Positions 35,657-62,186 of a stretch of 64,000 bases of DNA are shown here, in pieces. The stretch covers positions 96,001 through 160,000 of the IMG/VR virus record IMGVR_UViG_2595698595_000001, one strand, 5' to 3'. This DNA comes from a virus (lineage: Duplodnaviria; Caudoviricetes). How positions within the stretch are numbered: position 1 is the stretch's first letter; the number at the start of each line of letters is the position of its first letter. The notes beneath the pieces were generated by a model. It did no database searches and was not told the DNA's origin. It saw nothing but the letters and a program-made list of their open reading frames with translations. Both the position numbers and the translations under genes were made by a program.

Positions 35657-36832
35657 ATGCGTAAACTATACATACTGAAATTCGATGAATCTTTGGATGA
35701 CGTCTCATGGTATTCTAAAGATTCAGATCATTTAACAGTTTCTGAAGTTAAGAACTTTGTAGAATTTGCTAAAGACGGATTCGAAATAAATCTAATTTCG
35801 TATATATCAGAAACTAGGAAACGTGACAATCTTACATTTCTAAACGTTTTCGATTTCATAGATACCGATATAAAGGAATCAGATGTTGTAATTTTCTGGA
35901 CTGGTTACAATTATTCGACTAGAGTTAAATGTGGTGTTTATGGAACTTTATGGTATACATGTTTCGCTTCACTACATAACAAACCAGTAACCCCTTACGT
36001 TTTATGTACTGATACTAGATGTTTCATGATGAATCCAGAATTCTTCATGGATAACAAAGTTTATAGTTCAGTTATCGGTAATACAATTGACAGTTTAGCT
36101 AAATCTGTTGATAAAGTAAAATTCAAATATCTAACACAGGCTAGAAATACTGAAGAATTTAAGAATCTTGTAAGAGCTAATCGAGACGCTAATCAAAATT
36201 TCTTAGAAACTATACATATTCCAACTCACTTACTTCCATTAGTTTCTCACAGAATGGAAAATATTACATATGAACATGACAATCAATATGTTTATTATGG
36301 TAGCGCTCCAATAGATTTTAGTAAGAAACGTGATTATCGTACTGAGAATATCTTTAATCTTTTCTATGCTAATAACTTTACAAATAAAGCTAAGGGTCGT
36401 TTAATCATAAATACTAAAGCTTGTGAAGTTCCAACTCAAATTACTAGTAATATCAAAGTATCTGATAGAATACCTTATTCAGAAATAAAGAATATGCTTA
36501 ATAAATCATTCGCTTCTGTTATTCTATCTGAAGAAGCTTATCAAAAGTGTGAGTTAATACCTAATCGTTTAATCGAAGGGTTAGCTGCTAAAACGTTATT
36601 ACTAATACATGAACAAGTATTGGGAGGTCTTATGAAAACTATTCATGATATTGGTTTTTCGTTATTACAGGTTATTGATATATCCAATGAAAGAGATTAC
36701 GAAACATCTAAACAGATCGATGAGCTAGCTTCAAATCATGAATTACGTAGAAGTATTATCATCAGTAATCAAAAACTTCTGAAAACTATTTTCAATCCAT
36801 TGAATCTTACAAATACAATAAATCGACTATAA
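35657..36832 (+). CDS. GT-B DNA glycosyltransferase, T4 beta-glucosyltransferase-like
   Basis: CTDTRC; IPYSE...FASV..SE..Y....PNR..EG.AAKTLLLIH resembles the BGT C-terminal domain. Confidence 0.65.
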   Translation: MRKLYILKFDESLDDVSWYSKDSDHLTVSEVKNFVEFAKDGFEINLISYISETRKRDNLTFLNVFDFIDTDIKESDVVIFWTGYNYSTRVKCGVYGTLWYTCFASLHNKPVTPYVLCTDTRCFMMNPEFFMDNKVYSSVIGNTIDSLAKSVDKVKFKYLTQARNTEEFKNLVRANRDANQNFLETIHIPTHLLPLVSHRMENITYEHDNQYVYYGSAPIDFSKKRDYRTENIFNLFYANNFTNKAKGRLIINTKACEVPTQITSNIKVSDRIPYSEIKNMLNKSFASVILSEEAYQKCELIPNRLIEGLAAKTLLLIHEQVLGGLMKTIHDIGFSLLQVIDISNERDYETSKQIDELASNHELRRSIIISNQKLLKTIFNPLNLTNTINRL

Positions 36833-36834
36833 AA

Positions 36835-37992
36835 ATGAATACAACAAAGAGACGACTATTTTTAATCAAATTCAAAGATTCGTTATCACCTGAATGTATC
36901 GATAAAGATACTATCAGATACAAAGAAATCTACAATGTTTTAAGATTCGTACCAACTAATGAATTCGAAATCAATCTAGTAAATTACGATAATCCGAAAG
37001 TTTCTGAAGAAAATAATCAACAGTATTACAAATACATTCATTATGAAGATTTCAAGAATCTGGAATTACTTGAAACGGATTTGTTAATTTTCTGGACTGG
37101 TTATATTTACGTTCCAACAGATGTCGATGTATCTAAAACTGATGCTTCTAATATTCGAGCATTTTATGAATGTTTAGAATCTACAAGAAATAAAGATAAC
37201 AAGCGATATCTGATTTGTACAGATACTAGATGTCCATTGATTAAGCCTGGTTTTTATTCAAGTAATGAAATATTCAAAGAAGAACTTAAGGATATCAATA
37301 TCGATGACATTCATTTGACATACCTAACACAAGCTATCGATCCTGAAGCATTTATCGAAATCGTTAAATCTTCAGAAATTAATAGTGTTCATAAAAATGT
37401 ATCAGCTATTCATATGAAGCTACATTTAGCTCCGTTAGTTTCACATGACATTCCAAAGATTAAGGAAAATCATAATGGTAAGTTTTTCTATTACGCTGGT
37501 GACTTACGTGATATCAGTAAACATAGATACGATAATATCATTAAGTTCTATTCAGTAGATTCTTCAGATTTATCAGTTAAACCATTGATAGCTTCAAACG
37601 TTCATCCAGATATTTACGATAAATTACCAAATGTTGAATTTATCAATAAGATACCATATTCTGAAGTTCCTGTAAGATTAAATGAAATGTTCGCTTCTGT
37701 TTGTTTCTCTGAAGCTGATTACGAAAAATGTAGACTTTTACCAAATCGTATTGCTGAAGGTATTGCTGCAAAAACACTTTTATTGATTCATCATAATATC
37801 GATCCAGAACGTAAGTTGAATTTAGAACCTTTACAGTATTTCGAAACTGTTGAAGACTTTAAGAAATCTTTGAAGTATTATTCAGAAAAACCTCATAGAC
37901 GTATTAACGCTATCAACAATCAACGTTATCAACTTTCGATAGAAGGTGATTTAGATGCTTTTCAGTTTTCAAGGGACTTTAGTACTATTTAA
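36835..37992 (+). CDS. GT-B DNA glycosyltransferase, paralog of 35657
   Basis: Same FWTGY, CTDTRCP, YLTQA, IPYSE, PNR..EG motifs. Confidence 0.65.
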   Translation: MNTTKRRLFLIKFKDSLSPECIDKDTIRYKEIYNVLRFVPTNEFEINLVNYDNPKVSEENNQQYYKYIHYEDFKNLELLETDLLIFWTGYIYVPTDVDVSKTDASNIRAFYECLESTRNKDNKRYLICTDTRCPLIKPGFYSSNEIFKEELKDINIDDIHLTYLTQAIDPEAFIEIVKSSEINSVHKNVSAIHMKLHLAPLVSHDIPKIKENHNGKFFYYAGDLRDISKHRYDNIIKFYSVDSSDLSVKPLIASNVHPDIYDKLPNVEFINKIPYSEVPVRLNEMFASVCFSEADYEKCRLLPNRIAEGIAAKTLLLIHHNIDPERKLNLEPLQYFETVEDFKKSLKYYSEKPHRRINAINNQRYQLSIEGDLDAFQFSRDFSTI

Positions 37993-37995
37993 TAT

Positions 37996-39228
37996 ATGAA
38001 TAAACCATTAATACTTAGAGAACTAATATTCCAACAATATTCTAGTTACGATAAGAACATCCAGATGTACAACATACATCTGGATGGTAACTTAAATGCT
38101 ACATTACATGCAATTTGTAACGATTTCAAAGTTATGACAAATGTAGCATTACATTTGAAACGTAATTTCCATCTAGAATATACAATCACTATTCCAAAGA
38201 ATACAAAACCTAATTCGTTAACATTGATTACTAATTTCGTAGAAGGTTTAGAAAAACTGATATCTAACGAAAACGTTTCATTATCCATCGTATTCAAAAA
38301 TATCAAATATAGAAACTCTGCTAAAGAAAATCGAGATAACGGTGAATGGATATTAGCAGATGGTATTAACGAAATCGATATTAACGAATTCGATTCTATA
38401 TCAACTAATTTCGAAAAATCTTTAGACTTAGTTAGTTCTTTCGAAGCTTTATACAATTGGAAATCTGAAGTATCTGAAGCTTTTAGAATCCTAGACATTA
38501 AGAAACGTAGATTCAGTTCTAGATTAAACGTTTCGTTACATTCTAAGGAAGATGAACGTGAATATCTTAAAGGTCTTGAGAAGAACTGTTCAACACTTTT
38601 CGCATTTTCAGATTCTGTGACATTACATAATCAAGCTCAATTAGATTACATAAAGAATTATTATGTTTCAGATACATATGATAAATTTAGACTTTTGAAT
38701 GGTAAAATAAACAAAGGTTTTAATGCTGAATTTATAGAATATCAAATGTCATTTTACAAATCTGTAAATACGATAAAGAAAAATCAATTGATTCAGTTCT
38801 TCGAAAACTATGATATAGAATACATATTTCCTTTTAGACTAACTGACCCGGATTGGGGATTTCAAAATCTTACTGATGAAGAGAAATCAAAAACTGTAGT
38901 AACTGATCCAACGAATTCGATACTATTAGTAACTGATGAAATACAAAAAGCTTTCATCGAATGTGTCAGAGGTTTGGATAAACGTACATTATTATTTACG
39001 TTATTCGATCTTATCAGAACTAAGAAAATAGATGTAAAGATTCCACTGTTTTCTAATCCTTTGAATATTTTACATCAGACAAGTATCGAAATACTTTATT
39101 TGATATACGATAATATCGATTTCAGATTCGATAAACATGATACTTTCGAAACTGACATTTACGATATGTTCTATGTAACTGGGAATACAACAAATTGGTT
39201 AAACAAAATAACAAAAACAAATGACTAA
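37996..39228 (+). CDS. Putative glycosyltransferase-like protein of the cytosine modification cluster
   Basis: YN..LDGN, FPFRLTD, VTDP motifs; overlaps the TS homolog. Confidence 0.4.
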   Translation: MNKPLILRELIFQQYSSYDKNIQMYNIHLDGNLNATLHAICNDFKVMTNVALHLKRNFHLEYTITIPKNTKPNSLTLITNFVEGLEKLISNENVSLSIVFKNIKYRNSAKENRDNGEWILADGINEIDINEFDSISTNFEKSLDLVSSFEALYNWKSEVSEAFRILDIKKRRFSSRLNVSLHSKEDEREYLKGLEKNCSTLFAFSDSVTLHNQAQLDYIKNYYVSDTYDKFRLLNGKINKGFNAEFIEYQMSFYKSVNTIKKNQLIQFFENYDIEYIFPFRLTDPDWGFQNLTDEEKSKTVVTDPTNSILLVTDEIQKAFIECVRGLDKRTLLFTLFDLIRTKKIDVKIPLFSNPLNILHQTSIEILYLIYDNIDFRFDKHDTFETDIYDMFYVTGNTTNWLNKITKTND

Positions 39229-39928
39229 AATACAAGATAAACAAGAATTCGATAGTTTAGATGAAGCTTATCTAACTTTACTAAAAAGTTTGATCGATTT
39301 AGAACCTAACGAATTAGGTGAACGTGAAATGTTTGGTATCGCTTTCGATATCAAAAATATTGATGAAACTGATCCTAAAACTAATTTCAGTAAAATCAAA
39401 GAACGTAATATCAATTTAGTATTTCAAAATGCTTTCGCTCGTTGGTTAATGTCAGGTTCTAATTCAGCTGATGAGCTTTTACCACTGAATAAACGAACTT
39501 CTCAGTTTAATGAAATCGAAGGTAGAAATCTTCTATATCCACCACGTATTCAGAATCAAATTTATGACATAGTTGATGAATTAACCGAAAATCCTATGTC
39601 AAGACGTGCTACATTATTGATACTTGACGAAAGGGATCAGATAGTTAGAAAAGAAAAACGTGAGAAATCTGATTGTAAGAAAGAATATCCTTGTACAATA
39701 GCATTACATTTCTTTATTCGTAATAACAGATTACATTCAAATGTTATGATGCGTTCTAATAATGCTGTTAAAACTATATGTTTCGATTTTTCTAATTTCG
39801 CTTTCGTACAAAATTGTATAGCTAGAGAATTAGATTTGAAAGCTGGAACTATGCATTATTACATATCAAATGCTCACATTTTACCTGAAGATTATGAACA
39901 TGCTTTAAAAATCTGTGAAGCTAACTAA
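39221..39928 (+). CDS. Thymidylate synthase homolog, dCMP-modifying (gp42-like hydroxymethylase/hydroxylase)
   Basis: SRRA, YPCT, FFIR, MRSNN...FD (Asp at pyrimidine-specificity position), NAHI. Confidence 0.8.
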   Translation: MTKIQDKQEFDSLDEAYLTLLKSLIDLEPNELGEREMFGIAFDIKNIDETDPKTNFSKIKERNINLVFQNAFARWLMSGSNSADELLPLNKRTSQFNEIEGRNLLYPPRIQNQIYDIVDELTENPMSRRATLLILDERDQIVRKEKREKSDCKKEYPCTIALHFFIRNNRLHSNVMMRSNNAVKTICFDFSNFAFVQNCIARELDLKAGTMHYYISNAHILPEDYEHALKICEAN

Positions 39929-39976
39929 GAAACATTCGAATTGAGTTTGGTAATATTATACCAAACTCAATTTAAC

Positions 39977-41134
39977 ATGGCTAGAATAATAAAACTAGCA
40001 ATAATTGGTAACAGTGAGTATAACGATTTCGATCAGTTTACGAATCAGGTTACTGATGTATTGCAAAAATTAAAGAACACTACAGAAGACGTTTTGATCG
40101 AATATCATTACGTATCGATTGGTAGTAAATTAGGTGAATTGTCGAAGAGATTTCTAAATGCTAACCCAAAGCAACTCTATTCATCTCATACTATTCAATA
40201 CAAGAATCTTAATGCTAAACCTTGTACTGTAAGAATAGATAAGAACGGTGATTCTTATAACAGTTTAGCTCCTTTAGCTACACTTATAAATCTAATGAAT
40301 GTAGCAGATTATGTAATAGCTTTCTGGAATGGTACTGAAAAAGATTCTTTCATAAAAAGGGCTTTGACTAAATTCAAATCGAAATATTCTAAGAATTCTG
40401 AATATCGACAAAGATTACGAATAGTAAAATTCGAATCAGCTTGGATGCAAGCAAAAGGTGATTATGTTAAAGACATAGATCAGAATAAGGATTCATTGTT
40501 TTCAAAAGATTCTAAAGAATCGTATGTAACGATTAAAACTAAATTGAATACTATCAATCAGTCAGGATTAACACATGACGAGATAAACAAAAAGTTCAAT
40601 GATGTTGTAAAGAATCTAACAATAACTACTGAATCGCATTTACATGGTCCTAACTTTAAAATGTTACATGGTAATGGATCGTTAGAAGGTAAGCATACTA
40701 TCAGAATAAGTGGAACTCTCAGAAAGACTATGAATATCGAAAATCTTAACGATAATAACATAGCAACTGTAGCCTTTTATCTACCTGTAAATGAATTTGC
40801 AGATTTACTAAAGTTCATAATTTGGTGTCATGAAAACATAAAGATTATGGATGTTTCAGAAACTACAGAACTTCATAATAACGATGCTATAAATCCTCAA
40901 TGGTCTTACATGAATCATAAGGGTGAAAGTGTACATTTCTGTTACTATGAACAGAAACTTCCTGAAGTATCTTTCCAAATGATTAAGATGTATTCGATAG
41001 TTAACAATGTATCATACGAACAATTCGTAAATCTTTCACAATGGGGATTGTTTAACGCTAAAGGTTCTATCGTTTTCAAAGCTAGGAAATACTTGGAATG
41101 TTTACATGATTTGAAACTTATCCAAAAAGATTAG
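39977..41134 (+). CDS. SLOG (YspA-like) domain fused to unknown domain
   Basis: LAIIGNSEYNDF...ADYVIAFWNG; promoter AGAAAC-N17-TAATAT at 39928-39956 favours ATG 39977. Confidence 0.5.
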   Translation: MARIIKLAIIGNSEYNDFDQFTNQVTDVLQKLKNTTEDVLIEYHYVSIGSKLGELSKRFLNANPKQLYSSHTIQYKNLNAKPCTVRIDKNGDSYNSLAPLATLINLMNVADYVIAFWNGTEKDSFIKRALTKFKSKYSKNSEYRQRLRIVKFESAWMQAKGDYVKDIDQNKDSLFSKDSKESYVTIKTKLNTINQSGLTHDEINKKFNDVVKNLTITTESHLHGPNFKMLHGNGSLEGKHTIRISGTLRKTMNIENLNDNNIATVAFYLPVNEFADLLKFIIWCHENIKIMDVSETTELHNNDAINPQWSYMNHKGESVHFCYYEQKLPEVSFQMIKMYSIVNNVSYEQFVNLSQWGLFNAKGSIVFKARKYLECLHDLKLIQKD

Positions 41135-41165
41135 TACTTTATATTTAATCAAATACTTATACAAC

Positions 41166-41708
41166 ATGAAACATTTAATGACTATTTTCATGATGTTAAT
41201 AGTTTCATTAACGTCATGTAACAAAGAGGAAATCATAGAACCTGAACCACCAAAGAAAATCAAATACGAATTGTTTCTTTGGTCTCCCGCTAGAATGGAA
41301 ACTTATTTTCTGATACGAGATGATTCAGATAAGCAATATCAAAGTTTCTTAGATTACGCTGATTGGAATATGTTTGCAGGTCCTGAAGATCGTAATAAAT
41401 CTGAAATTACATTTTCAGGTGAAATGTTAGAATCTGAAACTTTAAGATTCCATTTACGTGGATTAGATTACGATTTAATGCCAATGGAATATAATTTCAA
41501 GGATTTCGTTTTAACTATAGACGATGAAATTGTTTATGTCGATAAAGGTATCAGAATACATGAAATTCAAATCATATATGAAGCTAAAACTGGTAAGGTT
41601 ACTGTAAACAAAAATACTAATTACGATAACGAATTACCACGTATTCCAGCTGACAGACTTGATAGCTATTATCGACCTAACTATACTATCAAAAGACCTA
41701 GAAATTAA
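41166..41708 (+). CDS. Lipoprotein (SPII), Bacteroidota-type surface export signal
   Basis: MKH-hydrophobic-LTSC then NKEE; promoter TGAAAC-N17-TACTTT at 41112-41140. Confidence 0.7.
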   Translation: MKHLMTIFMMLIVSLTSCNKEEIIEPEPPKKIKYELFLWSPARMETYFLIRDDSDKQYQSFLDYADWNMFAGPEDRNKSEITFSGEMLESETLRFHLRGLDYDLMPMEYNFKDFVLTIDDEIVYVDKGIRIHEIQIIYEAKTGKVTVNKNTNYDNELPRIPADRLDSYYRPNYTIKRPRN

Positions 41709-41738
41709 AACTTACCGTTTCGCAATACCCTTCTCAAT

Positions 41739-41766
41739 GAAAACCTGATAGAAATATCAGGTTTTC
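41739..41766 (+). terminator. Hairpin terminator, GAAA loop
   Basis: GAAAACCTGATA-GAAA-TATCAGGTTTTC. Confidence 0.7.
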
Positions 41767-41771
41767 TAGTT

Positions 41772-41800
41772 TGAAACTTTGTTCAAATCATTAGTACTAT
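41772..41800 (+). promoter_or_regulatory. Early/middle promoter TGAAAC-N17-TACTAT for rml operon
   Basis: Consensus match. Confidence 0.7.
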
Positions 41801-41822
41801 TCATTTAAATCAAATAATAATT

Positions 41823-42845
41823 ATGTCAAATATTAAACGTTCAGTTCTTGTAACTGGTGCTCTTGGATTCATTGGTTCTAATTTCGTTAGAACTATGGCA
41901 AAAAGATATCCAGATTACTTATTCATTCCACTTGATAATTTCGGATATGCTGCAAACCTGGAACATATCCCAGTCTTTGAAAAACTTACAAACGTTACAA
42001 AAGTTCAAGAAATAACTTTAGGTAGTTTCGATGAAGCTGAAAACTTTATTCTAGCTTCAATTTTCAAAACTTATGACATTGATACTGTGGTACATTTTGC
42101 TGCTGAATCACATGTCGATAATTCGATTTCTAATCCTGACATATTCGTTTTAGCTAATGTCAAAGGTACTGTCGATTTATTGAATGTTGCTAAGAATTAT
42201 TGGGCTGATCGTAAAGATGTAATATTCCATCATGTTTCAACCGATGAAGTATTTGGGGCTCTTGGAATGGAAGGTTCATTTAACGATGATTCTAATTACG
42301 ACCCACATTCACCTTATTCAGCTTCAAAAGCTGCAAGTGATATGTTCGTTAAAGCTTATGCTACGACTTACAATATGTTAGTATCGATTTCTAATTGTTC
42401 AAATAACTTCGGACCATATCAACACAAGGAAAAACTGATTCCAAAAGTTTTAGACGCAATTAAGAACAAAACTGAAATACCTCTTTACGGACATGGTCAA
42501 AATGTTAGAGATTGGTTACATGTTTTAGATCATAACGACGCTATAGATATGATTATCCATCATACTTTGAAATCTAAAGAATCTCGTAGAACTTGGTTAA
42601 TCGGTGGAGGTGTTGAATTAACAAATATAGAATTAATCGATAGACTAACAGAATCTGCTAATGAACATGATAATACATTTGATTATAAGTCATTGATTAA
42701 ATTCGTATCAGATCGTGCTGGTCATGATTTACGATATTCAATAGATTCTAGCACCTTACGTAAAGAACTTGAATGGAAGCCAAAATACGACATTACTAAA
42801 TGTATACCTTACATGATCGGAGAAACTTTAGGATTTACGAAATAA
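41823..42845 (+). CDS. rmlB: dTDP-glucose 4,6-dehydratase
   Basis: VTGALGFIGS, HFAAESHVDNSI, HVSTDEVFG, PYSASKA, RDWLHV.DH, DRAGHD.RY. Confidence 0.95.
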   Translation: MSNIKRSVLVTGALGFIGSNFVRTMAKRYPDYLFIPLDNFGYAANLEHIPVFEKLTNVTKVQEITLGSFDEAENFILASIFKTYDIDTVVHFAAESHVDNSISNPDIFVLANVKGTVDLLNVAKNYWADRKDVIFHHVSTDEVFGALGMEGSFNDDSNYDPHSPYSASKAASDMFVKAYATTYNMLVSISNCSNNFGPYQHKEKLIPKVLDAIKNKTEIPLYGHGQNVRDWLHVLDHNDAIDMIIHHTLKSKESRRTWLIGGGVELTNIELIDRLTESANEHDNTFDYKSLIKFVSDRAGHDLRYSIDSSTLRKELEWKPKYDITKCIPYMIGETLGFTK

Positions 42846-43417
42846 TGAAAAACATACCAGCAGGAATTGAAGGATGTATTTTTATACAGAATTCACAATT
42901 TAAAGATGAACGTGGATCGTTCAGAGAAACTTTCAGTAAAGAACGATTATCGTTCATATGTAAACATGAATTTGTTCAGGACAATGTTTCGATATCACAT
43001 AAGAATGTATTACGTGGAATGCATATTCAAACAGGTGATTCTGTACAAGGTAAACTTGTTACATGTCTTAAAGGTAGATTAATCGATTTAGTTGTAGACA
43101 TTCGTAAAGATTCTCTTACTTACGGTAAGACTATTACAGTATTACTACATGAACCAAATATGTCGTTATTTGTACCACGTGGTTGTCTACATGGATTCAT
43201 ATCATTAGAAGACGATACAATCATGCATTACAAATGTGATAACTATTATTCGAAAGAACATGAAGTATCTTATGACCCTTTAAGTTTACCGGAAAATATA
43301 TTCATACAAATCGAACAGGGTTTTAATATCGGTATAGACGATTTGATTATCAATTCTAAAGACAGAACTGGTAAAATGATCTATACTAACGAAGGAATTT
43401 TAAGTTCATTCATTTAA
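42845..43417 (+). CDS. rmlC: dTDP-4-dehydrorhamnose 3,5-epimerase
   Basis: DERGSF.E, QDNVS.S..NVLRGMH.Q, QGKLV, HGF, YKCDNYY; TAATG coupling at 42845. Confidence 0.93.
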   Translation: MKNIPAGIEGCIFIQNSQFKDERGSFRETFSKERLSFICKHEFVQDNVSISHKNVLRGMHIQTGDSVQGKLVTCLKGRLIDLVVDIRKDSLTYGKTITVLLHEPNMSLFVPRGCLHGFISLEDDTIMHYKCDNYYSKEHEVSYDPLSLPENIFIQIEQGFNIGIDDLIINSKDRTGKMIYTNEGILSSFI

Positions 43418-43420
43418 CAT

Positions 43421-44302
43421 ATGCTTACAAGAAATAGAAAAGGAATTATTTTAGCAGGTGGGTCTGGGACCCGCTTGCATCCATTGACTATCAGTGTTTC
43501 GAAACAGTTATTACCTGTATACGATAAACCAATGATTTACTATCCATTGACAACTCTTATCGAAGCTGGTATAAACGAAATACTTATAATATCAACACCA
43601 CAGGATAGAAATTCTTTCGAGAACTTACTAGGTAACGGTTCACAATTTGGTGTTAGAATAGAATACGCTGTTCAAGAAAAACCTAATGGTTTAGCACAAG
43701 CTTTCGTTATCGGTGAAGAATTCATAGGTAAATCTAAAGTAGCTCTGATTTTAGGTGACAACATTTTCCATGCTTCTAATATAGATAGATTACTTATGGA
43801 AGCTAATATGTCTGATAAAAATACGATATTTGCATATCGTGTAAATGATCCTCAGAGATATGGTGTAGTTGAATTCGATGAATATGATAACGCTGTTTCG
43901 ATCGAAGAAAAACCTTTGAATCCTAAATCTAATTACGCAGTACCAGGCTTATATTTCTATAATAACGATGTTATCGAAGTAGCTAAGACTATCAAACCTT
44001 CAGCTCGTGGAGAATACGAAATATCAGATATTAACGCATATTACTTAGATAAGAATCAATTATCAGTTAAAGCTTTTGACAGAAGTGGTACTACATGGTT
44101 AGATACTGGTACTATTCAGTCTTTAGCTGAAGCTTCTTTATTTGTTGAAGTCATGCAAAATCGTACCGGTAATTTAATAGGTAGCCCCGAAGAAGCTGCA
44201 TTTAGACATGATGAAATATCTAAAGACTCATTAATTGAATCTGCTAAGAAATATGATAAGTCTGGTTATGGTGAGTATCTTTTGAAACTTGTACAGAAAT
44301 GA
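43421..44302 (+). CDS. rmlA: Glucose-1-phosphate thymidylyltransferase
   Basis: GIILAGGSGTRLHPLT, SKQLLPVYDKPMIYYPL, LILGDNIF, EEKP, PSARGE.EI, WLDTGT. Confidence 0.97.
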   Translation: MLTRNRKGIILAGGSGTRLHPLTISVSKQLLPVYDKPMIYYPLTTLIEAGINEILIISTPQDRNSFENLLGNGSQFGVRIEYAVQEKPNGLAQAFVIGEEFIGKSKVALILGDNIFHASNIDRLLMEANMSDKNTIFAYRVNDPQRYGVVEFDEYDNAVSIEEKPLNPKSNYAVPGLYFYNNDVIEVAKTIKPSARGEYEISDINAYYLDKNQLSVKAFDRSGTTWLDTGTIQSLAEASLFVEVMQNRTGNLIGSPEEAAFRHDEISKDSLIESAKKYDKSGYGEYLLKLVQK

Positions 44303-44312
44303 AAAACAAGAC

Positions 44313-44366
44313 TTGGAATGCTGTTTAAACAGCATTCCAATCTTTAGTATAATCAATTTATACATA
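44313..44366 (+). terminator. Palindromic terminator overlapping early (TTAAAC-N17-TATAAT) and late (TATACATA 44359-44366) motifs
   Basis: TTGGAATGCTGTTTAAACAGCATTCCAA. Confidence 0.65.
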
Positions 44367-44389
44367 TATCTATAAACTATTTAGAACTA

Positions 44390-45184
44390 ATGAAACACAG
44401 AAGTAAAATTCTAACGTGGGCTTATTGGTTAGCTTCCAGAGAAGCTGCAGCAGTCTTCGTTCTAATGGGTATCATTTCCCAATTCTCTCATGTTTATTTC
44501 ATAACATACGAAATCTCATCACTCGTTGGATTCTGGAAAATAGCTCAAGCTATTATCATGTCTTTGTTTTTCTCATGTGGTCTTGCATACTTCATTTTAC
44601 GTGGTGTAAATGAAGACGATGATTCTAAAGAAAACAAGAGGTCTAAGAATCTGATATTACTTTTCACTTGGATTGAAGCTCTTATTAACTTTGCTTATTG
44701 GGGTGGTCATTTGATTTATGATCCATTAATGAACAATGAACAAGTTAACTGGTTCCAATTTGGTATTTCTATTCCATTCGCGGTATTGATTCCAGTATTG
44801 TTGAAAGCTTATGGATTCTCTATCTTAGTTAATGAACCTTCTATGATTGAAGAAATCGAAGAAGAAACTTCAGATATCAGTGAAACTATGTACAATGAAT
44901 TACTTGATAAACTGAAAGAATCTGAAGAGAAATACAAAAATCTACAAGGTGCTTACAAAATGAAATTCACTGGTGAAACTGGCGGAAACAAAGTTATAGA
45001 TGTTGAATTACAACCTAAAGATTTATCAGTTATTGAAGAAACTAAATCTGAAGAATCGATTATAGAAGAACCTATAACTAACGAAATCGAAGAAACTGTA
45101 AAAGTTGAAGAACCTAAACGTTTATCAGTTACTGAAGAAATCGATTTAGAAATGCAAAAGATAAATGAGCAACAATCTACTTAA
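44390..45184 (+). CDS. Multi-pass membrane protein with acidic C-terminal tail
   Basis: About four hydrophobic helices. Confidence 0.65.
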   Translation: MKHRSKILTWAYWLASREAAAVFVLMGIISQFSHVYFITYEISSLVGFWKIAQAIIMSLFFSCGLAYFILRGVNEDDDSKENKRSKNLILLFTWIEALINFAYWGGHLIYDPLMNNEQVNWFQFGISIPFAVLIPVLLKAYGFSILVNEPSMIEEIEEETSDISETMYNELLDKLKESEEKYKNLQGAYKMKFTGETGGNKVIDVELQPKDLSVIEETKSEESIIEEPITNEIEETVKVEEPKRLSVTEEIDLEMQKINEQQST

Positions 45185-45506
45185 ATCTATAGTCAATTTC
45201 GATATTGACAAAGCTACAAAAGATTATACCAAGTTCTTAGAAACAGAACAAGCTGAAACTGTTATGAACAGTATCTTGCTAAACTATTCTGAGAACTTAG
45301 GTAGAATCGTAGAAGTAGCACATAAGGAAATGTCAGAAGATATTCTTGAACAAATACTTCAAAGATATTCTAACAATATGCTAAAGCTTTGGAATAATCT
45401 TCAAAATCTACATAAAGAATCTTATTTCGAATTCAATTTAGATAATCCTTTTAAAGACGAATTAGCAAAAAACGACAAAGAACTTTCTAATCTATTATTT
45501 AAATGA
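45165..45506 (+). CDS. Hypothetical protein
   Basis: 113 aa ORF. Confidence 0.55.
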   Translation: MSNNLLKSIVNFDIDKATKDYTKFLETEQAETVMNSILLNYSENLGRIVEVAHKEMSEDILEQILQRYSNNMLKLWNNLQNLHKESYFEFNLDNPFKDELAKNDKELSNLLFK

Positions 45507-46165: not shown

Positions 46166-46371
46166 TGAGTAGATGGAAATTATCAGACGGTTCTAGTGCT
46201 GTCGAGGAAGTATTCAATGAACTTGGAATCGTTAATGAAGAAAACATACAAGTTACTATAGATATTTGGAAAGATAGTTTAACTGATATCACTGATATCA
46301 CTTTATTGCAGAAAACTAAAGACGATATCGAAATTTTCAAAGACATGTTAAAACATATGAAAAATCTGTAA
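46165..46371 (+). CDS. Hypothetical protein
   Basis: 68 aa, TAATG coupling. Confidence 0.5.
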   Translation: MSRWKLSDGSSAVEEVFNELGIVNEENIQVTIDIWKDSLTDITDITLLQKTKDDIEIFKDMLKHMKNL

Positions 46372-46375
46372 ATAA

Positions 46376-46455
46376 AAACCCATGTAACTGAAACTTACAT
46401 GGGTTTCGTAGTATAATACATTTAATTAATTAAATGCATTTCGTTACTTTGTAAC
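46376..46455 (+). promoter_or_regulatory. Stem-loop promoter cassette plus GTTACTTTGTAAC palindrome
   Basis: AAACCCATGTAA-CTGAAAC-TTACATGGGTTT; TATAAT 46412; palindrome 46443-46455. Confidence 0.8.
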
Positions 46456-46480
46456 ATATATACAAAAAATACTTTCAATT

Positions 46481-46684: not shown

Positions 46685-46713
46685 TCTATTTCTAACTTTT
46701 ATTTTTTTCAATT

Positions 46714-53215: not shown

Positions 53216-55090
53216 ATGCAATTCGAAAAACATTCTGTTCAATTTCTTATCGATCTTTACAACAATGCTAAAGAACAGTATTACAATACTGGAAATTCCC
53301 CACTTACCGATTCAGAATTCGATGAATTAGAGGATTATTTGCTATCTAATGAATACGTCGAGAAATATGTTGGTACTGAAGAAATCAAAGGTACTAAATC
53401 ACCTCATGTAACTCCAATGTTATCTCTTGACAAAGTTCAAGTATTTACTGATGGATTTGAAGGGCATCATTTCGATCATGTTCTTGCAGCTCTTGGTAGA
53501 TATGATCAATTTGTTACTCATAAACATGGTGATCATATGCTTCAAGCTTCATTTAAATTAGATGGTTTAGCTGCAAATATCACATATGCTGATGGAGTTC
53601 TTAAAACTATCGCAACACGTGGTAACGGTAAAATAGGTTCTGATATTACTGAAAAATGTAAACATTTAGTTCCAAACAAATTATCAACAAATTTCAGTGG
53701 TGAGGTTCGTGGTGAAATCTTTATCAAGAAATCTACATTCATTCAGAAATATTCTGAATACAAAAATCCAAGAAACTTAGCTGCCGGTATTGTTGGTCAA
53801 AACGATATCAAGGACCCAAGATTAAAAGATTTGAATATCTTCTTATTTGAAGTGAAAGGTTCGGTTAAGACTTTATTCGAAATCGTTGACTTACGTCCAT
53901 TGATAATCGATTCTATTTCGTTCTTCAATACATTCGATGAAATGTCGAAAGCTTATCATGAATTACTTGATAAACGTACAAATCTCGATTATCCAACAGA
54001 TGGTATCGTAATTAGATTATCAAGTGCTGTTGAACATCGTGATAATGGTTTAGCACCACTTTACTCAGTAGCTGTTAAATTCCCTCCAATGTTAGCAAGA
54101 ACTAAAATTGCTAAAATCTCATGGAATCTTCGTAAATCTGGAAAATTCATTCCACATGCAACATTAGAACCTGTAGAATTGGATGGAACTATCGTAACTC
54201 ATGCAGCTTTACATAACTATGGATGGGTTAATGAAAGAGGTTGTTGGGAAGGTGCTGAGGTTGTAATTGGTAAAAATGGTGACATCATTCCACAAATTCA
54301 ATCAGTAGTAACAAAATCAGAACCTTCTAATCTACCAGAAAATCATGTAATTTCTGATAACGGTCTTCATATGTTACCATCGGGTGATATGTCTGACGTT
54401 ATTAATCGCAACAAATTCGTTCAAGGTTTTTATACTTTAGGAATGTTTGGATTCGGTGGTGCTACATTCATCAAACTTTATGATTTGATGGAAGGTAAAA
54501 TCGAAAACATCTTTAACGATGATTTGTTTACTAAGAAAAATCTAGCACCAATACTAGGTTTAGGAATGACTGGTCCTAAATTCCTTAAGGAACGTCAACA
54601 TGTTTTAGTAAATATGAATCTTCCTAAGTTGCTATTAGCTATGCAATTCGATTCTTGTGGCTGGAGACATTGTTTGAAACTGTCTAAAGCGTATTCGAAA
54701 CCGGATGCTGAACTTGATACATCTGGATTAAATTCTAAAGTTGTATATTCAGTAACACAGGATCAAAACAATATCTATCGTATAACTTCAGCAATTCAAT
54801 TAGCGTTAAGAAACGGTATCGAACTTGAAGATATCGAAGAAAAAGTTATCGAAAAAGGTTCAGTTACTTTTGAAATGACTGGATCACCTAAATTAGCTGG
54901 ATTCAAATCTAAGGAAGCTTTCGTACAATATGTATCAACTTGGAATCATACGAAACTTAAGAAAGATACCACTTATCTGATAACAGATGATAAGGTTTCG
55001 AAAACTTCAAAAATGAAATTCGCGGACGCTAACAATGTAACAGTTTTAACTTACGAAGAAGCTGTAGCTAAATTTAAAGAATCTTTGTAA
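53216..55090 (+). CDS. ligA: NAD-dependent DNA ligase
   Basis: YY...SP.TD.EFD, PMLSLDK, KLDG, TRGNG..G.DIT, EVRGE, NPRNLAAG, DGIV, AVKF, ALHN, GDIIP, C-terminal BRCT. Confidence 0.95.
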   Translation: MQFEKHSVQFLIDLYNNAKEQYYNTGNSPLTDSEFDELEDYLLSNEYVEKYVGTEEIKGTKSPHVTPMLSLDKVQVFTDGFEGHHFDHVLAALGRYDQFVTHKHGDHMLQASFKLDGLAANITYADGVLKTIATRGNGKIGSDITEKCKHLVPNKLSTNFSGEVRGEIFIKKSTFIQKYSEYKNPRNLAAGIVGQNDIKDPRLKDLNIFLFEVKGSVKTLFEIVDLRPLIIDSISFFNTFDEMSKAYHELLDKRTNLDYPTDGIVIRLSSAVEHRDNGLAPLYSVAVKFPPMLARTKIAKISWNLRKSGKFIPHATLEPVELDGTIVTHAALHNYGWVNERGCWEGAEVVIGKNGDIIPQIQSVVTKSEPSNLPENHVISDNGLHMLPSGDMSDVINRNKFVQGFYTLGMFGFGGATFIKLYDLMEGKIENIFNDDLFTKKNLAPILGLGMTGPKFLKERQHVLVNMNLPKLLLAMQFDSCGWRHCLKLSKAYSKPDAELDTSGLNSKVVYSVTQDQNNIYRITSAIQLALRNGIELEDIEEKVIEKGSVTFEMTGSPKLAGFKSKEAFVQYVSTWNHTKLKKDTTYLITDDKVSKTSKMKFADANNVTVLTYEEAVAKFKESL

Positions 55091-58024: not shown

Positions 58025-58744
58025 ATGAACAAACAAACTAATCTCCTGTTTGACGACAGACAAGACTTAGCTAAATCATTGGAACATAGACTGACCAATG
58101 TGAACAACCAACTTAACCAATTTGTAGCTGAATTCCGTAAACTTGTACAAGACCCGCAAAGTAATGTATTACACATGTTCGATATGATTATCAACAAAAA
58201 TGATAGAATCGATATCGATCATACAATCTATTTATGTGGTATCGGTAAGAACATTCCATCACTTCGTAAAGCTTCAGCAACTTTTAAATCGTTAGGTCTT
58301 AAATGTGAAGTACTTGACGCAGTTGATGCTTTACATGGTGATTTAGGTTGTATCAGGGATTATGATACTGTAATATTCTTTTCGAAATCTGGTAATACTT
58401 CAGAATTGTTAAGAACTATGCAATATTTAGATTCCATAAACACTGTAATTGATGGTGAAAGTTCTGTATCGAATAAATCTATTTGTATAGATATGTTTGC
58501 AGTTTCAATGAATAGCGAATTCGATTCAGGTTTTGAAAACTTCAAAACCATCAATCATGTAGTATTACCGAAAACCGGTGAAGCTGACGAATTCAATAAA
58601 GTCCCAACCACTTCACCGATAGCCTTCCAAATCTTCTTAGACATGTTAGCTTGTGAATATGCTTCTGTTTATGATTTGACTTTAGAAGATTTCGGTGGTA
58701 ATCACCCGGGTGGTGACATTGGAAAATTCATAAACAAAAACTAA
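58025..58744 (+). CDS. Arabinose-5-phosphate isomerase-like SIS protein (KdsD/KpsF family, no CBS domains)
   Basis: CGIGKN, ATFKSLG, DALHGDLG, SKSGNTSEL, PTTS, F..NHPGG.IG. Confidence 0.85.
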   Translation: MNKQTNLLFDDRQDLAKSLEHRLTNVNNQLNQFVAEFRKLVQDPQSNVLHMFDMIINKNDRIDIDHTIYLCGIGKNIPSLRKASATFKSLGLKCEVLDAVDALHGDLGCIRDYDTVIFFSKSGNTSELLRTMQYLDSINTVIDGESSVSNKSICIDMFAVSMNSEFDSGFENFKTINHVVLPKTGEADEFNKVPTTSPIAFQIFLDMLACEYASVYDLTLEDFGGNHPGGDIGKFINKN

Positions 58745-58950: not shown

Positions 58951-58980
58951 AAAAGTCGTATCGAATAGATACGACTTTTT
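58951..58980 (+). terminator. Intrinsic terminator
   Basis: AAAAGTCGTATC-GAATA-GATACGACTTTTT. Confidence 0.8.
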
Positions 58981-58993
58981 CATTCTTTCAATT

Positions 58994-59416
58994 ATGAACA
59001 AATACGATTTCAATTGGGTAAGGGATGAATCCTTAGACACTTATGATGGTTATTATCATGCTTATATCGTTACTAGAAAGTTTGGAAACGTTAAAGCTAG
59101 ACTAGGAATAAATCTAGACCCTTACATGAATTGTTATGTTTCTTTAAGTAGTGGTAGGAAACGTAAGCAATTAAGTATTTACGAAGACAAACCTGAAAAG
59201 AATTCATGTGGAATCGAAATATTGATATGGACTAAGGAGGCTATGCTAGATTTCCCTATTTGGTTTAATGACCGTCATATCAATAAACTTAATTCTATGC
59301 TAGTTACAGGTTCTGATACTAGACGTTTCAAAATATACAAGCGTTATTTGATACCTCATGGATTCTATACACAAAAACAGCATGACGGTGGAATCTATCT
59401 GTTCAAGAAACTTTAG
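58994..59416 (+). CDS. Hypothetical protein
   Basis: 140 aa; TTTCAATTATG start. Confidence 0.6.
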   Translation: MNKYDFNWVRDESLDTYDGYYHAYIVTRKFGNVKARLGINLDPYMNCYVSLSSGRKRKQLSIYEDKPEKNSCGIEILIWTKEAMLDFPIWFNDRHINKLNSMLVTGSDTRRFKIYKRYLIPHGFYTQKQHDGGIYLFKKL

Positions 59417-59434
59417 TCAGTTTCTTAGTAATAT
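59406..59434 (+). promoter_or_regulatory. Early/middle promoter AGAAAC-N17-TAATAT
   Basis: Consensus spacing. Confidence 0.6.
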
Positions 59435-59466
59435 TCAATTATAAAAACTTAACAAAAACAAATTTA

Positions 59467-61197
59467 ATGGAGCATGTAGTTATATTGGCTGGTGGTCTTG
59501 GTTCTAGACTTCATAAATTTACAGCTAATCTTTATCCTAAGATTTTGATTTCGATGGGTAACGAAACTATGTTAGACAAACTTGTAAATTACTATTCAGT
59601 TTACAAGGATTTGAAATCGTTTAACATTGTCGTTTCGACTGAAGAAAATCAAAGACTTATATCTAATTATCTGAATCGATATCATTCTAACGCTTTCGGA
59701 AAAAATACAAAAATCGATGTATTACTTTACAAAAAGTTAGATGGTTCTTTCAATACGATTTACAACCTATTCAAGGGTCAGGGATTGAAGAATGTAGTAT
59801 TCAATTGGTCTGATATCATTCCAACATCACATCTTCAGGTAACAAAATTATTGACTAACGAATTCAAGATAATTACTGATGTTCAAAAACGTCATAGGAT
59901 GGGTATCGAATTTAGACAAGGTACAAGAACTTATGAAGTTGTCAAATATTCGAAAGATGATATGAAGGGTAACATTCCAGGATATTTCTTTATAGGTGAT
60001 TTCGATAGTATATTCGATCATGTATTCGTTGATAACTTAAGACTATATCATAATCTGTCACCAGAAATAGATTTGATGGATGCTTTAGAAGCACAAATCG
60101 AAAAGAATAGATGTATAGTTTCAACTAATGAAATAGATTTTATCGATATCGGAGATGTTGAAAAATATGAAAAATACATGGAAACGATATCGTTAGAAAC
60201 TAGATATTTCAATAGTTTAGAAATTACTGAAAATACAGTTCGTAAGAAAGCTTTAAACGAAAAAGGTATGTCAGTAATCGATAATGAATTGAATTGGTAT
60301 TCTACAGTTGGTAGATTCTTTCCAGATACTAAAAATCGTCCAGCTATTCCAAGAATTTCTAATATTCAAAAGAATTATGATTATCCTCAAGGTGAACAGA
60401 AATTTCATTCTATTGAATTTTCAATGAATCGTATTGACGGTAAAACTGTTGACGAATATCTTTGGAACGATCCTTTAGAAATGTATAATGTATTACGTTT
60501 ATTTGATACTGAGATTTCTAAGTTTCATAATATCGAACAATCGAATAAACCTGAAAAACGTTGGAATGAACATCATATGCATGAATATTTCAAAGTTACA
60601 TATCAACGTTTAGATGAAATATTCTTCATGTTACAAGCTGATGTACATCATTTCAAAATCGGTGATAAGATTCATAGTTTCAAAGGTGATACTATTCATT
60701 TACTTGAACATACTATGAAATATCTTTATGACGCTTATTCTAAATCTGAAGCTAATGAATGGGGATTGATTCATGGTGACCCAAACACTTCTAACGTAAT
60801 GATTTCTAATGATGGTACCGAAATGTTCTTTATCGACCCAAGAGGATTATTCGGACATTCTTTGATGTTTGGTGATATTTATTACGATTGGGCTAAATTC
60901 ATATATGGACTTCAAGGTTATTCTAGATTCAATTTAGATAAGACTTTCGAATTACATTATGACGAACATAGTAAAACTATGCAAGTAGATTTCTTCAAAT
61001 ATGGAATCTATGATATCGATACAGTGTTACATACTGTAAAACAGATTAGACCTGATTTAGATATCAAGCGTTTACGTGTTATCGTTGGTTTGATTCATGT
61101 TAAATTAGCACAGTACATAAGAAACAATCCATCAAAAATGTACGCAACTTATTATTACGGTAAATACTTATTAGAAACAACCTTATCTGAAAAATAA
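59467..61197 (+). CDS. Sugar-phosphate nucleotidyltransferase fused to APH/choline-kinase-like domain
   Basis: VILAGGLGSRL...PKILI, WSD, DIGD; RYFN, HGDPNTSN, FIDPRG, GD.YYD.AK. Confidence 0.85.
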   Translation: MEHVVILAGGLGSRLHKFTANLYPKILISMGNETMLDKLVNYYSVYKDLKSFNIVVSTEENQRLISNYLNRYHSNAFGKNTKIDVLLYKKLDGSFNTIYNLFKGQGLKNVVFNWSDIIPTSHLQVTKLLTNEFKIITDVQKRHRMGIEFRQGTRTYEVVKYSKDDMKGNIPGYFFIGDFDSIFDHVFVDNLRLYHNLSPEIDLMDALEAQIEKNRCIVSTNEIDFIDIGDVEKYEKYMETISLETRYFNSLEITENTVRKKALNEKGMSVIDNELNWYSTVGRFFPDTKNRPAIPRISNIQKNYDYPQGEQKFHSIEFSMNRIDGKTVDEYLWNDPLEMYNVLRLFDTEISKFHNIEQSNKPEKRWNEHHMHEYFKVTYQRLDEIFFMLQADVHHFKIGDKIHSFKGDTIHLLEHTMKYLYDAYSKSEANEWGLIHGDPNTSNVMISNDGTEMFFIDPRGLFGHSLMFGDIYYDWAKFIYGLQGYSRFNLDKTFELHYDEHSKTMQVDFFKYGIYDIDTVLHTVKQIRPDLDIKRLRVIVGLIHVKLAQYIRNNPSKMYATYYYGKYLLETTLSEK

Positions 61198-62186
61198 TGA
61201 AATTTAAAGGAACTGACCAAAAAACTTCAAGACTGATATTCACCGACTTCGATGGTATCTTCAGTCATGATATGCAATACTCATATATTGACAGAACTAG
61301 TAACGGTCCTGAGAAAAATGCAAAAACTGTAGCATTCGGTATTCGTGATGTTGTTAAGATTCTGAATTACGCTGGTTTCGAAATTCATATTGTTTCGGGT
61401 GATTCTACAGAAAAAGGTCAAGCTTTAACTAAGAAGTTTTTACATAACATTCATGTGGAATCTGTAAACTTTGTACCAACCGATCAAAAACTTGATAGAA
61501 TTCTTGAACTAGCTAATGGTAGGGATTTCATCTGGATCGGTGAGGACTTGATTGACTTACAAATCAAGGAATTCGCCATGAATTACATAACTACCGATAA
61601 CGCTCCAAACATGTTGAAGGAATTAGCTGATGCTAACTTTAGACAAGATTATTTTTGGCACGATTTGTTATCATATTTAATGAAAACTAAAATCTTCAAT
61701 GTTGTTGACGAAGATACACATTGTCTGATAAAATACGCTTTACAGAAATACATCAAACCAGATTTCTTCAAGTTAGTAAGTTACGGATTGATTGATAAAA
61801 ACTATCTAATCGAATCCTTAGAAACATATCGAGGTGTTGAAGAACTTAACGAAATCAAAGTTAACGATATTGAAGACTTCATGGATAAGATAAAAACTAC
61901 AGAAGTTCTAAAAACTGTACCAGTCTTTGGTAAACTCGATTTGATTTCATCTATGAAAGTTTTAGTCAATAACATTTGTAAACATGAACTTAAGTTTGTA
62001 TATACTAAGAACGTTCATTTGTTTTCAGACACTGTAAATATCGGTGACATATTCGAAGTTCTTTCATCATTAAGATTTACAGAATCTTCTAACAGTTTCC
62101 ACGATTACTATATCTACGGATTTACAAAAATCGTAGAAGGTAAGATTGAAAACATGTTAAACGAGAAGTTAGGAGCTAAATTCTAG
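61197..62186 (+). CDS. HAD phosphatase (KdsC-like) with C-terminal extension
   Basis: FTDFDGIFS, IVSGD, K, WIGEDLID. Confidence 0.7.
   Translation: MKFKGTDQKTSRLIFTDFDGIFSHDMQYSYIDRTSNGPEKNAKTVAFGIRDVVKILNYAGFEIHIVSGDSTEKGQALTKKFLHNIHVESVNFVPTDQKLDRILELANGRDFIWIGEDLIDLQIKEFAMNYITTDNAPNMLKELADANFRQDYFWHDLLSYLMKTKIFNVVDEDTHCLIKYALQKYIKPDFFKLVSYGLIDKNYLIESLETYRGVEELNEIKVNDIEDFMDKIKTTEVLKTVPVFGKLDLISSMKVLVNNICKHELKFVYTKNVHLFSDTVNIGDIFEVLSSLRFTESSNSFHDYYIYGFTKIVEGKIENMLNEKLGAKF

Follow-up and report, generated by a model that had tools for sequence, protein, structure and literature searches.

The window considered here is a 64,000-nucleotide stretch, positions 96,001 to 160,000 (G000:C1:96001-160000) of the single 219,372-base virus record IMGVR_UViG_2595698595_000001, the whole of which we call G000. 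It carries a dispersed set of genes with which the phage probably replaces the cytosine of its DNA with glycosylated 5-hydroxycytosine (5hoC). The proposal draws on family membership, active-site signatures, gene order and promoter motifs, from which the chemistry, the sugar donors and the DNA acceptor would follow. Its core is supported by residue signatures, folds, homology and conserved gene context, and agrees with the cytosine modification published for phage PAU. The genes concerned (Table 1) encode a thymidylate synthase (TS) homolog, two glycosyltransferases (GTs) resembling T4 beta-glucosyltransferase (BGT), enzymes for an arabinose-type sugar nucleotide and, with a more tentative role, the products of rmlBCA and three GTs of the GT-A fold. 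A first-pass annotation of this DNA had read cytosine hypermodification from these genes, a reading supported by the D169N and N177D substitutions of the TS homolog, a gp56-like dCTPase, and homologs of RB69 p055 and p052/p053.

A thymidylate synthase homolog with the signature of a 5-hydroxy-dCMP synthase

The TS homolog matches PF00303 at 2e-11 (44 bits against a cut-off of 24.3) and phrog_160 at 1.8e-35, and its nearest matches in the Protein Data Bank (PDB) are the CMP hydroxymethylase MilA and the entries 9iqu/9iqc. It was aligned with E. coli ThyA, T4 gp42, RB69 gp48, the phage's own ThyA, PTm1 gp167 and MA9V-2_146 (alignments A1 and A5); the catalytic cysteine (E. coli C146) is invariant in A5, the window protein included. 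The segment equivalent to E. coli R166-N177 reads RSNNAVKTICFD in the window, RSQNCAVVMQLD in RB69 gp48 and RSNNMGTVAVLD in PTm1 gp167, all three with N169/D177 in E. coli numbering; T4 gp42 (RSNDVVFGFRND) and MA9V-2_146 (RSNDIVHGLPID) have D169/D177, and E. coli ThyA and the phage ThyA have D169/N177. Around residue 169 the motif is MRSNN in the window, MRSQN in RB69 gp48, MRSND in T4 gp42 and RSCD in E. coli. The pairing of D169N with N177D is identical to that of RB69 gp48, and Asp177, which goes with a cytosine rather than a uracil substrate, is found in the window enzyme, T4 gp42 and RB69 gp48, both ThyA proteins having Asn.

According to the main text of Lee et al. (Nucleic Acids Research 2026; PMC13326640), RB69 gp48 and DLP3 gp80 make 5-hydroxy-dCMP, D169N is proposed as the diagnostic residue, and selected, diverse D169N homologs each yielded 5-hydroxydeoxycytidine (5hodC) in vivo. 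Judging from its residues, the window TS homolog carries this published signature. We consider it improbable that the enzyme is instead a T4-like dCMP hydroxymethylase and that the DNA bears 5-hydroxymethylcytosine (5hmC) glycosylated by the BGT-like enzymes. The transferases do belong to the family of T4 BGT, an enzyme known to act on 5hmC, MilA is the PDB protein closest in sequence to the TS homolog, and in phage MA9V-2 a TS homolog with the T4 gp42 pattern accompanies two BGT-like paralogs and the arabinose genes. However, T4 gp42, MilA and MA9V-2_146 all keep D169, whereas the window protein has N169 like RB69 gp48 and PTm1 gp167, and the in vivo results on D169N homologs point the same way.

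We give very little credence to another reading, in which no gene acts on DNA, the sugar genes serve auxiliary metabolism and the TS homolog merely adds a divergent thymidylate synthase to the first. Low sequence identities would allow such a reading, but N177D removes the uracil-specifying Asn, and a canonical ThyA is encoded elsewhere in the genome (G000:16974-18305, or L001:1498-2829; 250 bits), so that the TS homolog is not needed for dTMP. Against it stand, too, a homolog of the RB69 dCTPase gp56 outside the window (G000:84904-85407; 31% identity, E 6.6e-19), the fold and residues of the BGT-like proteins, and the cytosine modification reported in passages of PMC5646251 for a phage of matching size. 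The canonical ThyA is itself unusual: its 443 residues include, when aligned with E. coli ThyA (A1), one large insertion of ~150 residues and another at the C-terminus.

For the kinase step, the first-pass annotation had named a dNMP kinase beside three GT-A enzymes. The GT-A part stands (see below), and the kinase, a candidate 5hodCMP kinase by analogy only, matches PF02223 (3.5e-7, residues 6-32) and TIGR00041 (9.1e-8, residues 2-33) only over its P-loop. Similarity to RB69 p045 is likewise confined to the P-loop, and the match to MA9V-2_145 has E 0.005.

Two BGT-like transferases in the same operon

The TS homolog lies directly behind two GTs and a 410-residue open reading frame (ORF), as had been noticed at first pass; the successive gaps between the four genes are 2, 3 and -8 nt. 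The TRANSFERASES in front of the TS homolog, encoded at 35657-36832 and 36835-37992, are paralogs of each other (34% identity, E 5e-55). Neither has a Pfam family at E <= 0.01, PF09198 (the T4 BGT family) included, and their own family is tiny: one other protein was recovered in a word-indexed search of 5.8 billion, and profile searches among 1.84 billion proteins gave 26 representatives at E <= 0.001, 4 of which match PF09198.

The AlphaFold model of BGT-like 1, built from a 26-row alignment (pLDDT 87.3, pTM 0.89), was compared with the PDB by Foldseek. Ranks 1-6 are all T4 BGT (E 7e-13 to 8e-10, TM by target 0.73-0.78), among the PDB matches being the D100A mutant structure 1nzd; the next matches (Gtf3, AGT, OtsA) reach a TM by query of <= 0.60. 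Across the 15 sequences of an alignment led by T4 BGT (A6), E272 never varies and D60, D100, R195 and R269 hardly do; both window paralogs keep all five. Of these, D100, R195, R269 and E272 are presumably the catalytic base and UDP binders of T4 BGT. Given the T4 BGT-type fold and the conserved residues, the label BGT-like is correct. The likeness to RB69-type arabinosyltransferases suggested at first pass held only in part: the proteins are BGT-like, but the RB69 and DLP3 enzymes belong to a different, GT4-like family. The two BGT-like enzymes are the best candidates for acting directly on DNA, and from fold and gene context we infer that they would flip a modified base out of duplex DNA and glycosylate it.

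The 410-residue ORF between them and the TS homolog had been taken for a third GT, an assignment that we do not uphold. Pfam and the PDB gave no match, the Atlas none that was usable, and even profile-profile comparison showed no similarity to the BGT-like family; its one family match, a weak one, is to phrog_3891, of unknown function. Just three homologs were found in 5.8 billion proteins, one of them on a 19,372-base contig; the BGT-like homolog P0002 also lies on a 19,372-base contig, which hints at conserved linkage of the two genes. Downstream of the TS homolog the operon continues with a 397-residue orphan ORF, for which we found no homolog besides itself and no BLAST match to RB69 p050, and ends with a 180-residue ORF, likewise an orphan.

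A probable arabinose-type sugar supply resembling that of RB69

The KdsD-like isomerase of the first-pass annotation is confirmed by its SIS and phrog_5670 matches. KpsF/GutQ (NCBIfam) is reached at 2.3e-15 (56.9 bits, below the cut-off of 203.7), and the protein is 30% identical to RB69 p055 (E 2.6e-13) and 39-40% identical to the product of the gene directly 5' of the fusion gene in MA9V-1 and MA9V-2. The fusion enzyme has both halves that had been predicted, an NTP_transferase domain (residues 4-72) and an APH kinase domain (residues 322-479), and matches both RB69 p053 (2.3e-9) and p052 (5.5e-26), as well as phrog_4098 (1.7e-158). Its relatives occur in 354 phage records, mostly, going by the first word of their names, phages of Escherichia, Acinetobacter and Klebsiella of ~165-175 kb; of 25 spread-sampled records listed out of the 354, 14 cover 99-100% of the query in alignments with 25-29% identity. 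A passage in Thomas et al. 2018 (PMC6024577) describes a 24%-identical PAU homolog of RB69 ORF53_52c.

Immediately 3' of the fusion gene lies the ORF with the KdsC-like HAD domain, which occupies its N-terminal ~150-185 residues (residues ~7-185) and is recognised by an FTDFDG motif and a match to the KDN-9-P phosphatase model NF058599 (2e-4), in keeping with the earlier assignment. Atlas structures named KdsC give a TM by row of 0.68-0.77, which serves as a lead only, and the ORF shares 35% identity with a portion of MA9V-2_142, whose annotation is KDO-8-P phosphatase. It has no Pfam HAD match and, since it has no BLAST match to RB69 p051 either, the phosphatase is analogous and not orthologous to that protein. 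Residues ~190-329 of the same ORF show weak similarity to capsid protein VP25 (PF23369 2.8e-4; PDB 7chk, E 0.019). A 140-residue ORF at 58994-59416 was also considered as a HAD protein and rejected, since it lacks both a DxD start motif and a family assignment.

These predicted activities correspond to the pathway that the main text of PMC13326640 gives for RB69, DLP3 and HY126 (ribulose-5-phosphate to arabinose-5-phosphate, the 1,5-bisphosphate, arabinose-1-phosphate and UDP-arabinose), as anticipated when isomerase, kinase, HAD and transferase were first proposed to make NDP-arabinose. In the route that we envisage, a gp56-like dCTPase would hydrolyse dCTP to dCMP, the TS homolog would convert dCMP to 5-hydroxy-dCMP, and a kinase (possibly the Tmk-like protein) together with host enzymes would raise it to the triphosphate, to be incorporated by the polymerase. 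The isomerase would turn ribulose-5-phosphate into arabinose-5-phosphate, the kinase half of the fusion would form the 1,5-bisphosphate, the HAD domain would remove the 5-phosphate, and the N-terminal half of the fusion would yield NDP-arabinose, probably UDP-arabinose. After replication, the two BGT-like enzymes would flip out 5-hydroxycytosine and place sugar on its hydroxyl; alternatively, one of them might extend the first sugar.

A putative rhamnose-type supply and three GT-A enzymes that may extend the glycan

Starting 115 nt after the TS operon, rmlBCA was correctly identified at first pass. RmlA exceeds its TIGRFAM equivalog cut-off, and RmlB (TIGR01181, 345 bits against 365.1) and RmlC (TIGR01221, 146.7 bits against 155.75) fall slightly short of theirs. 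A divergent RmlD-like short-chain dehydrogenase/reductase (SDR) of 436 residues lies 57 kb away (G000:201664-202974; PF04321 102.6 bits; TIGR01214 96.4 bits against a cut-off of 224). The three GT-A enzymes, 6 kb from the TS operon and directly 5' of the Tmk-like kinase gene, are paralogs, GT-A 1 being 23-27% identical to the others and GT-A 2 and GT-A 3 50% identical to each other. No relative of the trio was found in 50,697 phage records (tblastn with GT-A 2 gave no match), GT-A 2 was not found in any of the 5 related phages described below, and GT-A 3 had no relative in viral contigs.

The GT-A trio and a dTDP-6-deoxyhexose, made by RmlA, RmlB, RmlC and the distal RmlD-like protein, might lengthen the glycan begun on 5hoC, a tentative suggestion based on adjacency, a shared promoter class and the presence or absence of genes in relatives. 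The full structure that this implies, a mixed oligosaccharide on 5-hydroxycytosine of arabinose and a 6-deoxyhexose (rhamnose-type), started by the BGT-family enzymes and extended by the GT-A trio, is rather unlikely to be right in every part, and the presence of rhamnose on the DNA is doubtful; an acceptor other than DNA is equally possible for the rhamnose-type sugar. Three points speak for the mixed glycan: rmlBCA stands beside the modification operon, all four rml genes share the promoter class of that operon, and the rml, GT-A and 410-residue genes occur together in G000 only. The exceptional mobility shift published for PAU DNA (26%) would likewise be accounted for.

There is a tenable possibility that the DNA has only arabinosyl (or other UDP-sugar) 5-hydroxycytosine, with the rml and GT-A genes serving virion proteins, such as fibres, or a host surface glycan. 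Phages with no known DNA link often encode an RmlA homolog (189 phage records do, most of them E. coli myoviruses whose annotation names RmlA and RmlB alone), and arabinosyl-5hoC phages as described in the main text of PMC13326640 need no dTDP-sugar. The GT-A unit follows a late-type TATACATAT motif (at 25852), of the kind found before the major capsid gene and further genes that are likely late, and a tail protein gene lies ~4.5 kb upstream of the RmlD-like gene. We found no literature connecting rhamnose or deoxyhexose with phage DNA modification, nor any base of such mixed composition, in the main texts covered. These points weigh against a mixed glycan, but the short distance between the TS operon and rmlBCA, and the promoter motif that rmlBCA shares with the DNA ligase and fusion genes and with the distal RmlD-like gene but not with the capsid, 584-residue or tail genes, argue for a role in modification. 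The GT-A trio directly precedes the Tmk-like kinase, and GT-A-fold phage DNA glycosyltransferases are documented in the text of a preprint (bioRxiv 10.1101/2023.12.21.572611). The genome has no further recognisable GT, which would leave five GTs for one modification unless some of them extend. Genome-wide profile searches found no PF00534 (GT4-type), PF00535 or PF01041 protein in G000; in the PF00534 search the control matched in 14/14 genomes. With PF01041 absent, a sugar aminotransferase as a source of positive charge for the mobility shift was discarded.

Promoter motifs and transcription units

The first-pass annotation had placed a TGAAAC-N17 promoter before most of these operons. The class is real: the motif G[AT]AAC-N14-TAGTAnnAT (= TGAAAC-N17-TAnnAT; class A) is found at 11 sites of the window where 0.09 would be expected, and every one is on the + strand. 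It precedes 3 of the 6 named units, those with sites at 35607 (a GTAAC variant), 41773 and 59407; of the others, the kinase has a degenerate copy, the isomerase none and the GT-A unit TATACATAT instead. Class-A motifs also occur before the DNA ligase gene (53154) and the distal RmlD-like gene. Two class-A sites 1.4 kb apart (20740-20767 and 22157-22184) have an identical 28-nt sequence and may represent a local duplication.

The second motif, TATACATAT, has 14 matches (13 on the + strand, 1 on the - strand) against 1.8 expected in all. Because it lies 20-50 nt 5' of many ORF starts, including those of the major capsid gene, the 584-residue gene and the glucosaminidase, it is probably a late-promoter element. 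The copy at 25852 precedes ORF 25864, the head of the GT-A unit; the units at 44390 and 62288 carry both motifs; and a similar element, ATACATAT, precedes the 875-residue tail gene. From these positions we infer that class A may mark early or middle transcription and TATACATAT late transcription. Terminator-like hairpins bracket the units at 35564-35599, just 5' of the site at 35607, and at 44313-44340, after rmlA.

Table 1. Genes and promoter-like sites of the window (window positions; aa, amino acids).
Feature	Position	Strand	Length (aa)	Basis
GT-A glycosyltransferase 1	26556..27482	+	308	Glyco_transf_7C 5.2e-7, Glyco_tranf_2_2 1.1e-5; DSD motif
GT-A glycosyltransferase 2	27508..28488	+	326	Glyco_transf_7C 2.4e-12
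GT-A glycosyltransferase 3	28463..29500	+	345	Glyco_transf_7C 1e-6
Tmk-like P-loop kinase, candidate 5hodCMP kinase by analogy only	29575..30180	+	201	PF02223 residues 6-32
Class-A promoter-like site, GTAAC-N14-TAGTACAAT, before BGT-like/TS operon	35607..35634	+
BGT-like GT-B glycosyltransferase 1	35657..36832	+	391	model, PDB matches, phrog_32512
BGT-like GT-B glycosyltransferase 2	36835..37992	+	385	paralog of 1; phrog_32512 3.5e-215
410-aa protein in operon	37996..39228	+	410	phrog_3891 (function unknown) 1.9e-6
TS-superfamily enzyme, 5-hydroxy-dCMP synthase signature	39221..39928	+	235	PF00303, C146, D169N, N177D
Orphan ORF, TS operon	39941..41134	+	397	no Pfam/PHROG family
Last ORF of TS operon	41166..41708	+	180	no Pfam/PHROG family
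Class-A promoter-like site before rmlB	41773..41800	+
RmlB-type dTDP-glucose 4,6-dehydratase	41823..42845	+	340	PF16363 6.7e-70
RmlC-type 3,5-epimerase	42800..43417	+	205	PF00908 1.1e-47
RmlA glucose-1-phosphate thymidylyltransferase	43421..44302	+	293	TIGR01207 419.6 bits, above cut-off 360.65
Arabinose-5-phosphate isomerase-like SIS protein	58025..58744	+	239	SIS 8.2e-7; phrog_5670 'arabinose 5-phosphate isomerase' 4.3e-79; RB69 p055
Class-A promoter-like site before fusion/HAD pair	59407..59434	+
Sugar-1-phosphate nucleotidyltransferase (N-terminal) + kinase (C-terminal), AfhE-like	59467..61197	+	576	Pfam, PHROG and RB69 matches
KdsC-like HAD domain + C-terminal half	61197..62186	+	329	FTDFDG motif, NF058599
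TATACATAT sites	8494, 12264, 15387, 17754, 18866, 22955, 25852, 31371, 32934, 34860, 44359, 62212	+

Host group, relatives and phage PAU

The record is a 219-kb phage that, by its genes, is a non-Straboviridae myovirus relative with a Bacteroidota-like host. A 585-residue ORF (18915-20672) is a homolog of the major capsid protein that matches 29 records, jumbo phages of Bacteroidota, with 36-37% identity to Tenacibaculum phages pT24, PTm1 and PTm5 and 31% to Chryseobacterium phages MA9V-1 and MA9V-2; further matches are Flavobacterium phage MaF61 and the Prevotella Lak phages. Within a panel of five relatives (MA9V-1, MA9V-2, PTm1, pT24 and MaF61), a second TS homolog and the fusion enzyme occur in three (MA9V-1, MA9V-2 and PTm1), and two BGT-like paralogs in each of MA9V-1 and MA9V-2, where the isomerase gene also lies directly 5' of the fusion gene in the same order as in the window. 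In PTm1 the fusion, phosphatase and N169 TS homolog genes adjoin. This recurrence of TS homolog, fusion, isomerase and BGT-like genes indicates a modification module common to this phage group. RmlA, the GT-A family and the 410-residue family were found in none of the five.

Related loci in which to look for co-occurring rml genes were sought in viral contigs (queries A2, A4 and GT-A 3) and metagenome contigs (A2 and A4), and none turned up. The TS homolog query returned one distant IMG/VR locus (L009), and megablast with 35657-45200 as query found nothing in the phage collection, the window's own record possibly being masked.

Two of the relatives show variants of the module. In MA9V-2 (L029:7330-9266), a Tmk-like kinase gene is followed by that of a 447-residue TS homolog with D169/D177 and a C-terminal extension of ~220 residues; using the arabinose genes and BGT-like pair that it shares with the window, this phage may produce glycosylated 5hmC. 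The PTm1 cluster (L028:10914-13852) holds adjacent genes for the fusion enzyme (annotated guanylyltransferase), a 'histidine phosphatase' and the N169/D177 TS homolog, so the phosphatase step appears to be filled there by a different superfamily. A BGT-like gene was not found in PTm1 in the search of the five relatives.

Phage PAU, as described in passages of Hua et al. 2017 (PMC5646251), has a 219-kb genome and a 585-residue major capsid protein, and its DNA runs 26% slower at constant field and contains 'a partially modified cytosine' of undetermined nature. The phage studied here is likely PAU. The 'Phage Pau' of papers on BREX and the 'PaulScherrer' of the BASEL preprint are not this phage. 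Where Iyer et al. 2021 refer to PAU DNA modification, they do so only through the electrophoresis result, and the main text of PMC13326640 makes no mention of PAU, Sphingomonas, Sphingobacterium, Chryseobacterium or rhamnose.

Several observations weigh against glycosylated 5hoC as the cytosine replacement, or against parts of the scheme. Identities to RB69 proteins are low (28-31%), and 8 of the 14 RB69/T4 reference proteins have no BLAST match in the genome at E <= 0.01: both arabinosyltransferases (p003, p046, p047), the Tmk-like p045, the HAD protein p051, p049, p050 and T4 BGT. Both window BGT-like GTs fail to reach PF09198, there is no GT4-type PF00534 or PF00535 protein, and the kinase is assigned only by its P-loop, the Tmk models covering residues ~1-33. 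The viruses behind the D169N rule are for the most part Straboviridae, with few others. PAU DNA is described in the passages cited above as partially modified and not as fully replaced, and its link to this record is a match of sizes only.

Comparison with known systems

The closest known chemistry is the arabinosyl-5-hydroxycytosine (Afh) system of RB69, DLP3 and HY126, which shares with this phage the D169N and N177D TS homolog, a gp56-like dCTPase, an arabinose-5-phosphate isomerase, a bifunctional nucleotidyltransferase/kinase, a HAD-type phosphatase, a Tmk-like kinase candidate and several glycosyltransferases. Here, however, the genes lie scattered across ~36 kb, forming at least 4 units where the Afh genes make up one cluster, the transferases belong to the T4 BGT family and the GT-A fold where those of RB69 and DLP3 are GT4-like, and the phosphatase, which is KdsC-like, carries an extra fused domain, in contrast to the small 1xpj-like protein of that system. 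The rmlBCA and RmlD-like genes are additional, and the phage is non-Straboviridae with a Bacteroidota-like host. T4 BGT itself (GT63, PF09198) has the same GT-B fold, D100, R195, R269 and E272, and b-gt stands next to gene 42 much as the window genes neighbour a TS-superfamily gene, but identity is ~15%, the window has two tandem paralogs, and they are predicted to act on 5hoC (or a sugar attached to it) where T4 BGT acts on 5hmC.

Rhizobium phage RL38J1 (Pootjesviridae), with hexosylated 5-hydroxycytosine, likewise has, in the published account of it, a D169N TS homolog, dispersed GTs and a phage-encoded unusual NDP-sugar enzyme; it uses UDP-galactofuranose and glucose, without the arabinose or dTDP-sugar genes seen here. 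The JGT-like enzymes of phage MT/5mYOX clusters, as far as their published description goes, share with the window GT-As the fold, DxD-type motifs and a DNA-modification setting, but act on 5hmC made on DNA by TET-like enzymes, whereas the window GT-As are Glyco_transf_7C proteins. Bacterial RmlABCD, which makes dTDP-L-rhamnose, differs in that the reductase here is divergent and remote; the final sugar may be rhamnose or another 6-deoxyhexose.

Glycosylated 5-hydroxycytosine is known already, having been chemically defined only in 2025-26, and the authors predict in the main text of PMC13326640 that other sugar combinations can be found through D169N. New here are transferases of the BGT family, three orphan GT-A enzymes and a dTDP-6-deoxyhexose supply beside the modification operon. 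The genome offers a concrete 5hoC-glycan candidate outside Straboviridae and Pootjesviridae, in which the T4 BGT family would have been recruited to a 5hoC context with two phage-encoded sugar-nucleotide routes. It further suggests a structure that can be tested for two 2017 findings on a phage of matching size, namely a cytosine modification left unexplained and a very large electrophoretic shift. A deoxyhexose on the base, if true, would mean a new natural DNA base and a new GT-A or BGT-like activity, with a bearing on restriction and CRISPR evasion and on DNA glycosylation tools.

Other features of the window

Base composition is ~31% G+C, and nearly all ORFs are on the + strand. The sole sizeable minus-strand ORF of an otherwise all-plus region is at 33433-34305 (290 residues, without a family). 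A 548-nt stretch at 46166-46713 has no ORF of at least 80 residues and no tRNA; it contains a class-A site (46390) and could hold small ORFs or an RNA. Between the rml and arabinose genes lie an ORF resembling a pyrimidine-dimer DNA glycosylase (47245-47805; PF03013 6.2e-6) and an NAD-dependent DNA ligase gene (53216-55090), and the stretch as a whole looks like a DNA-metabolism region.

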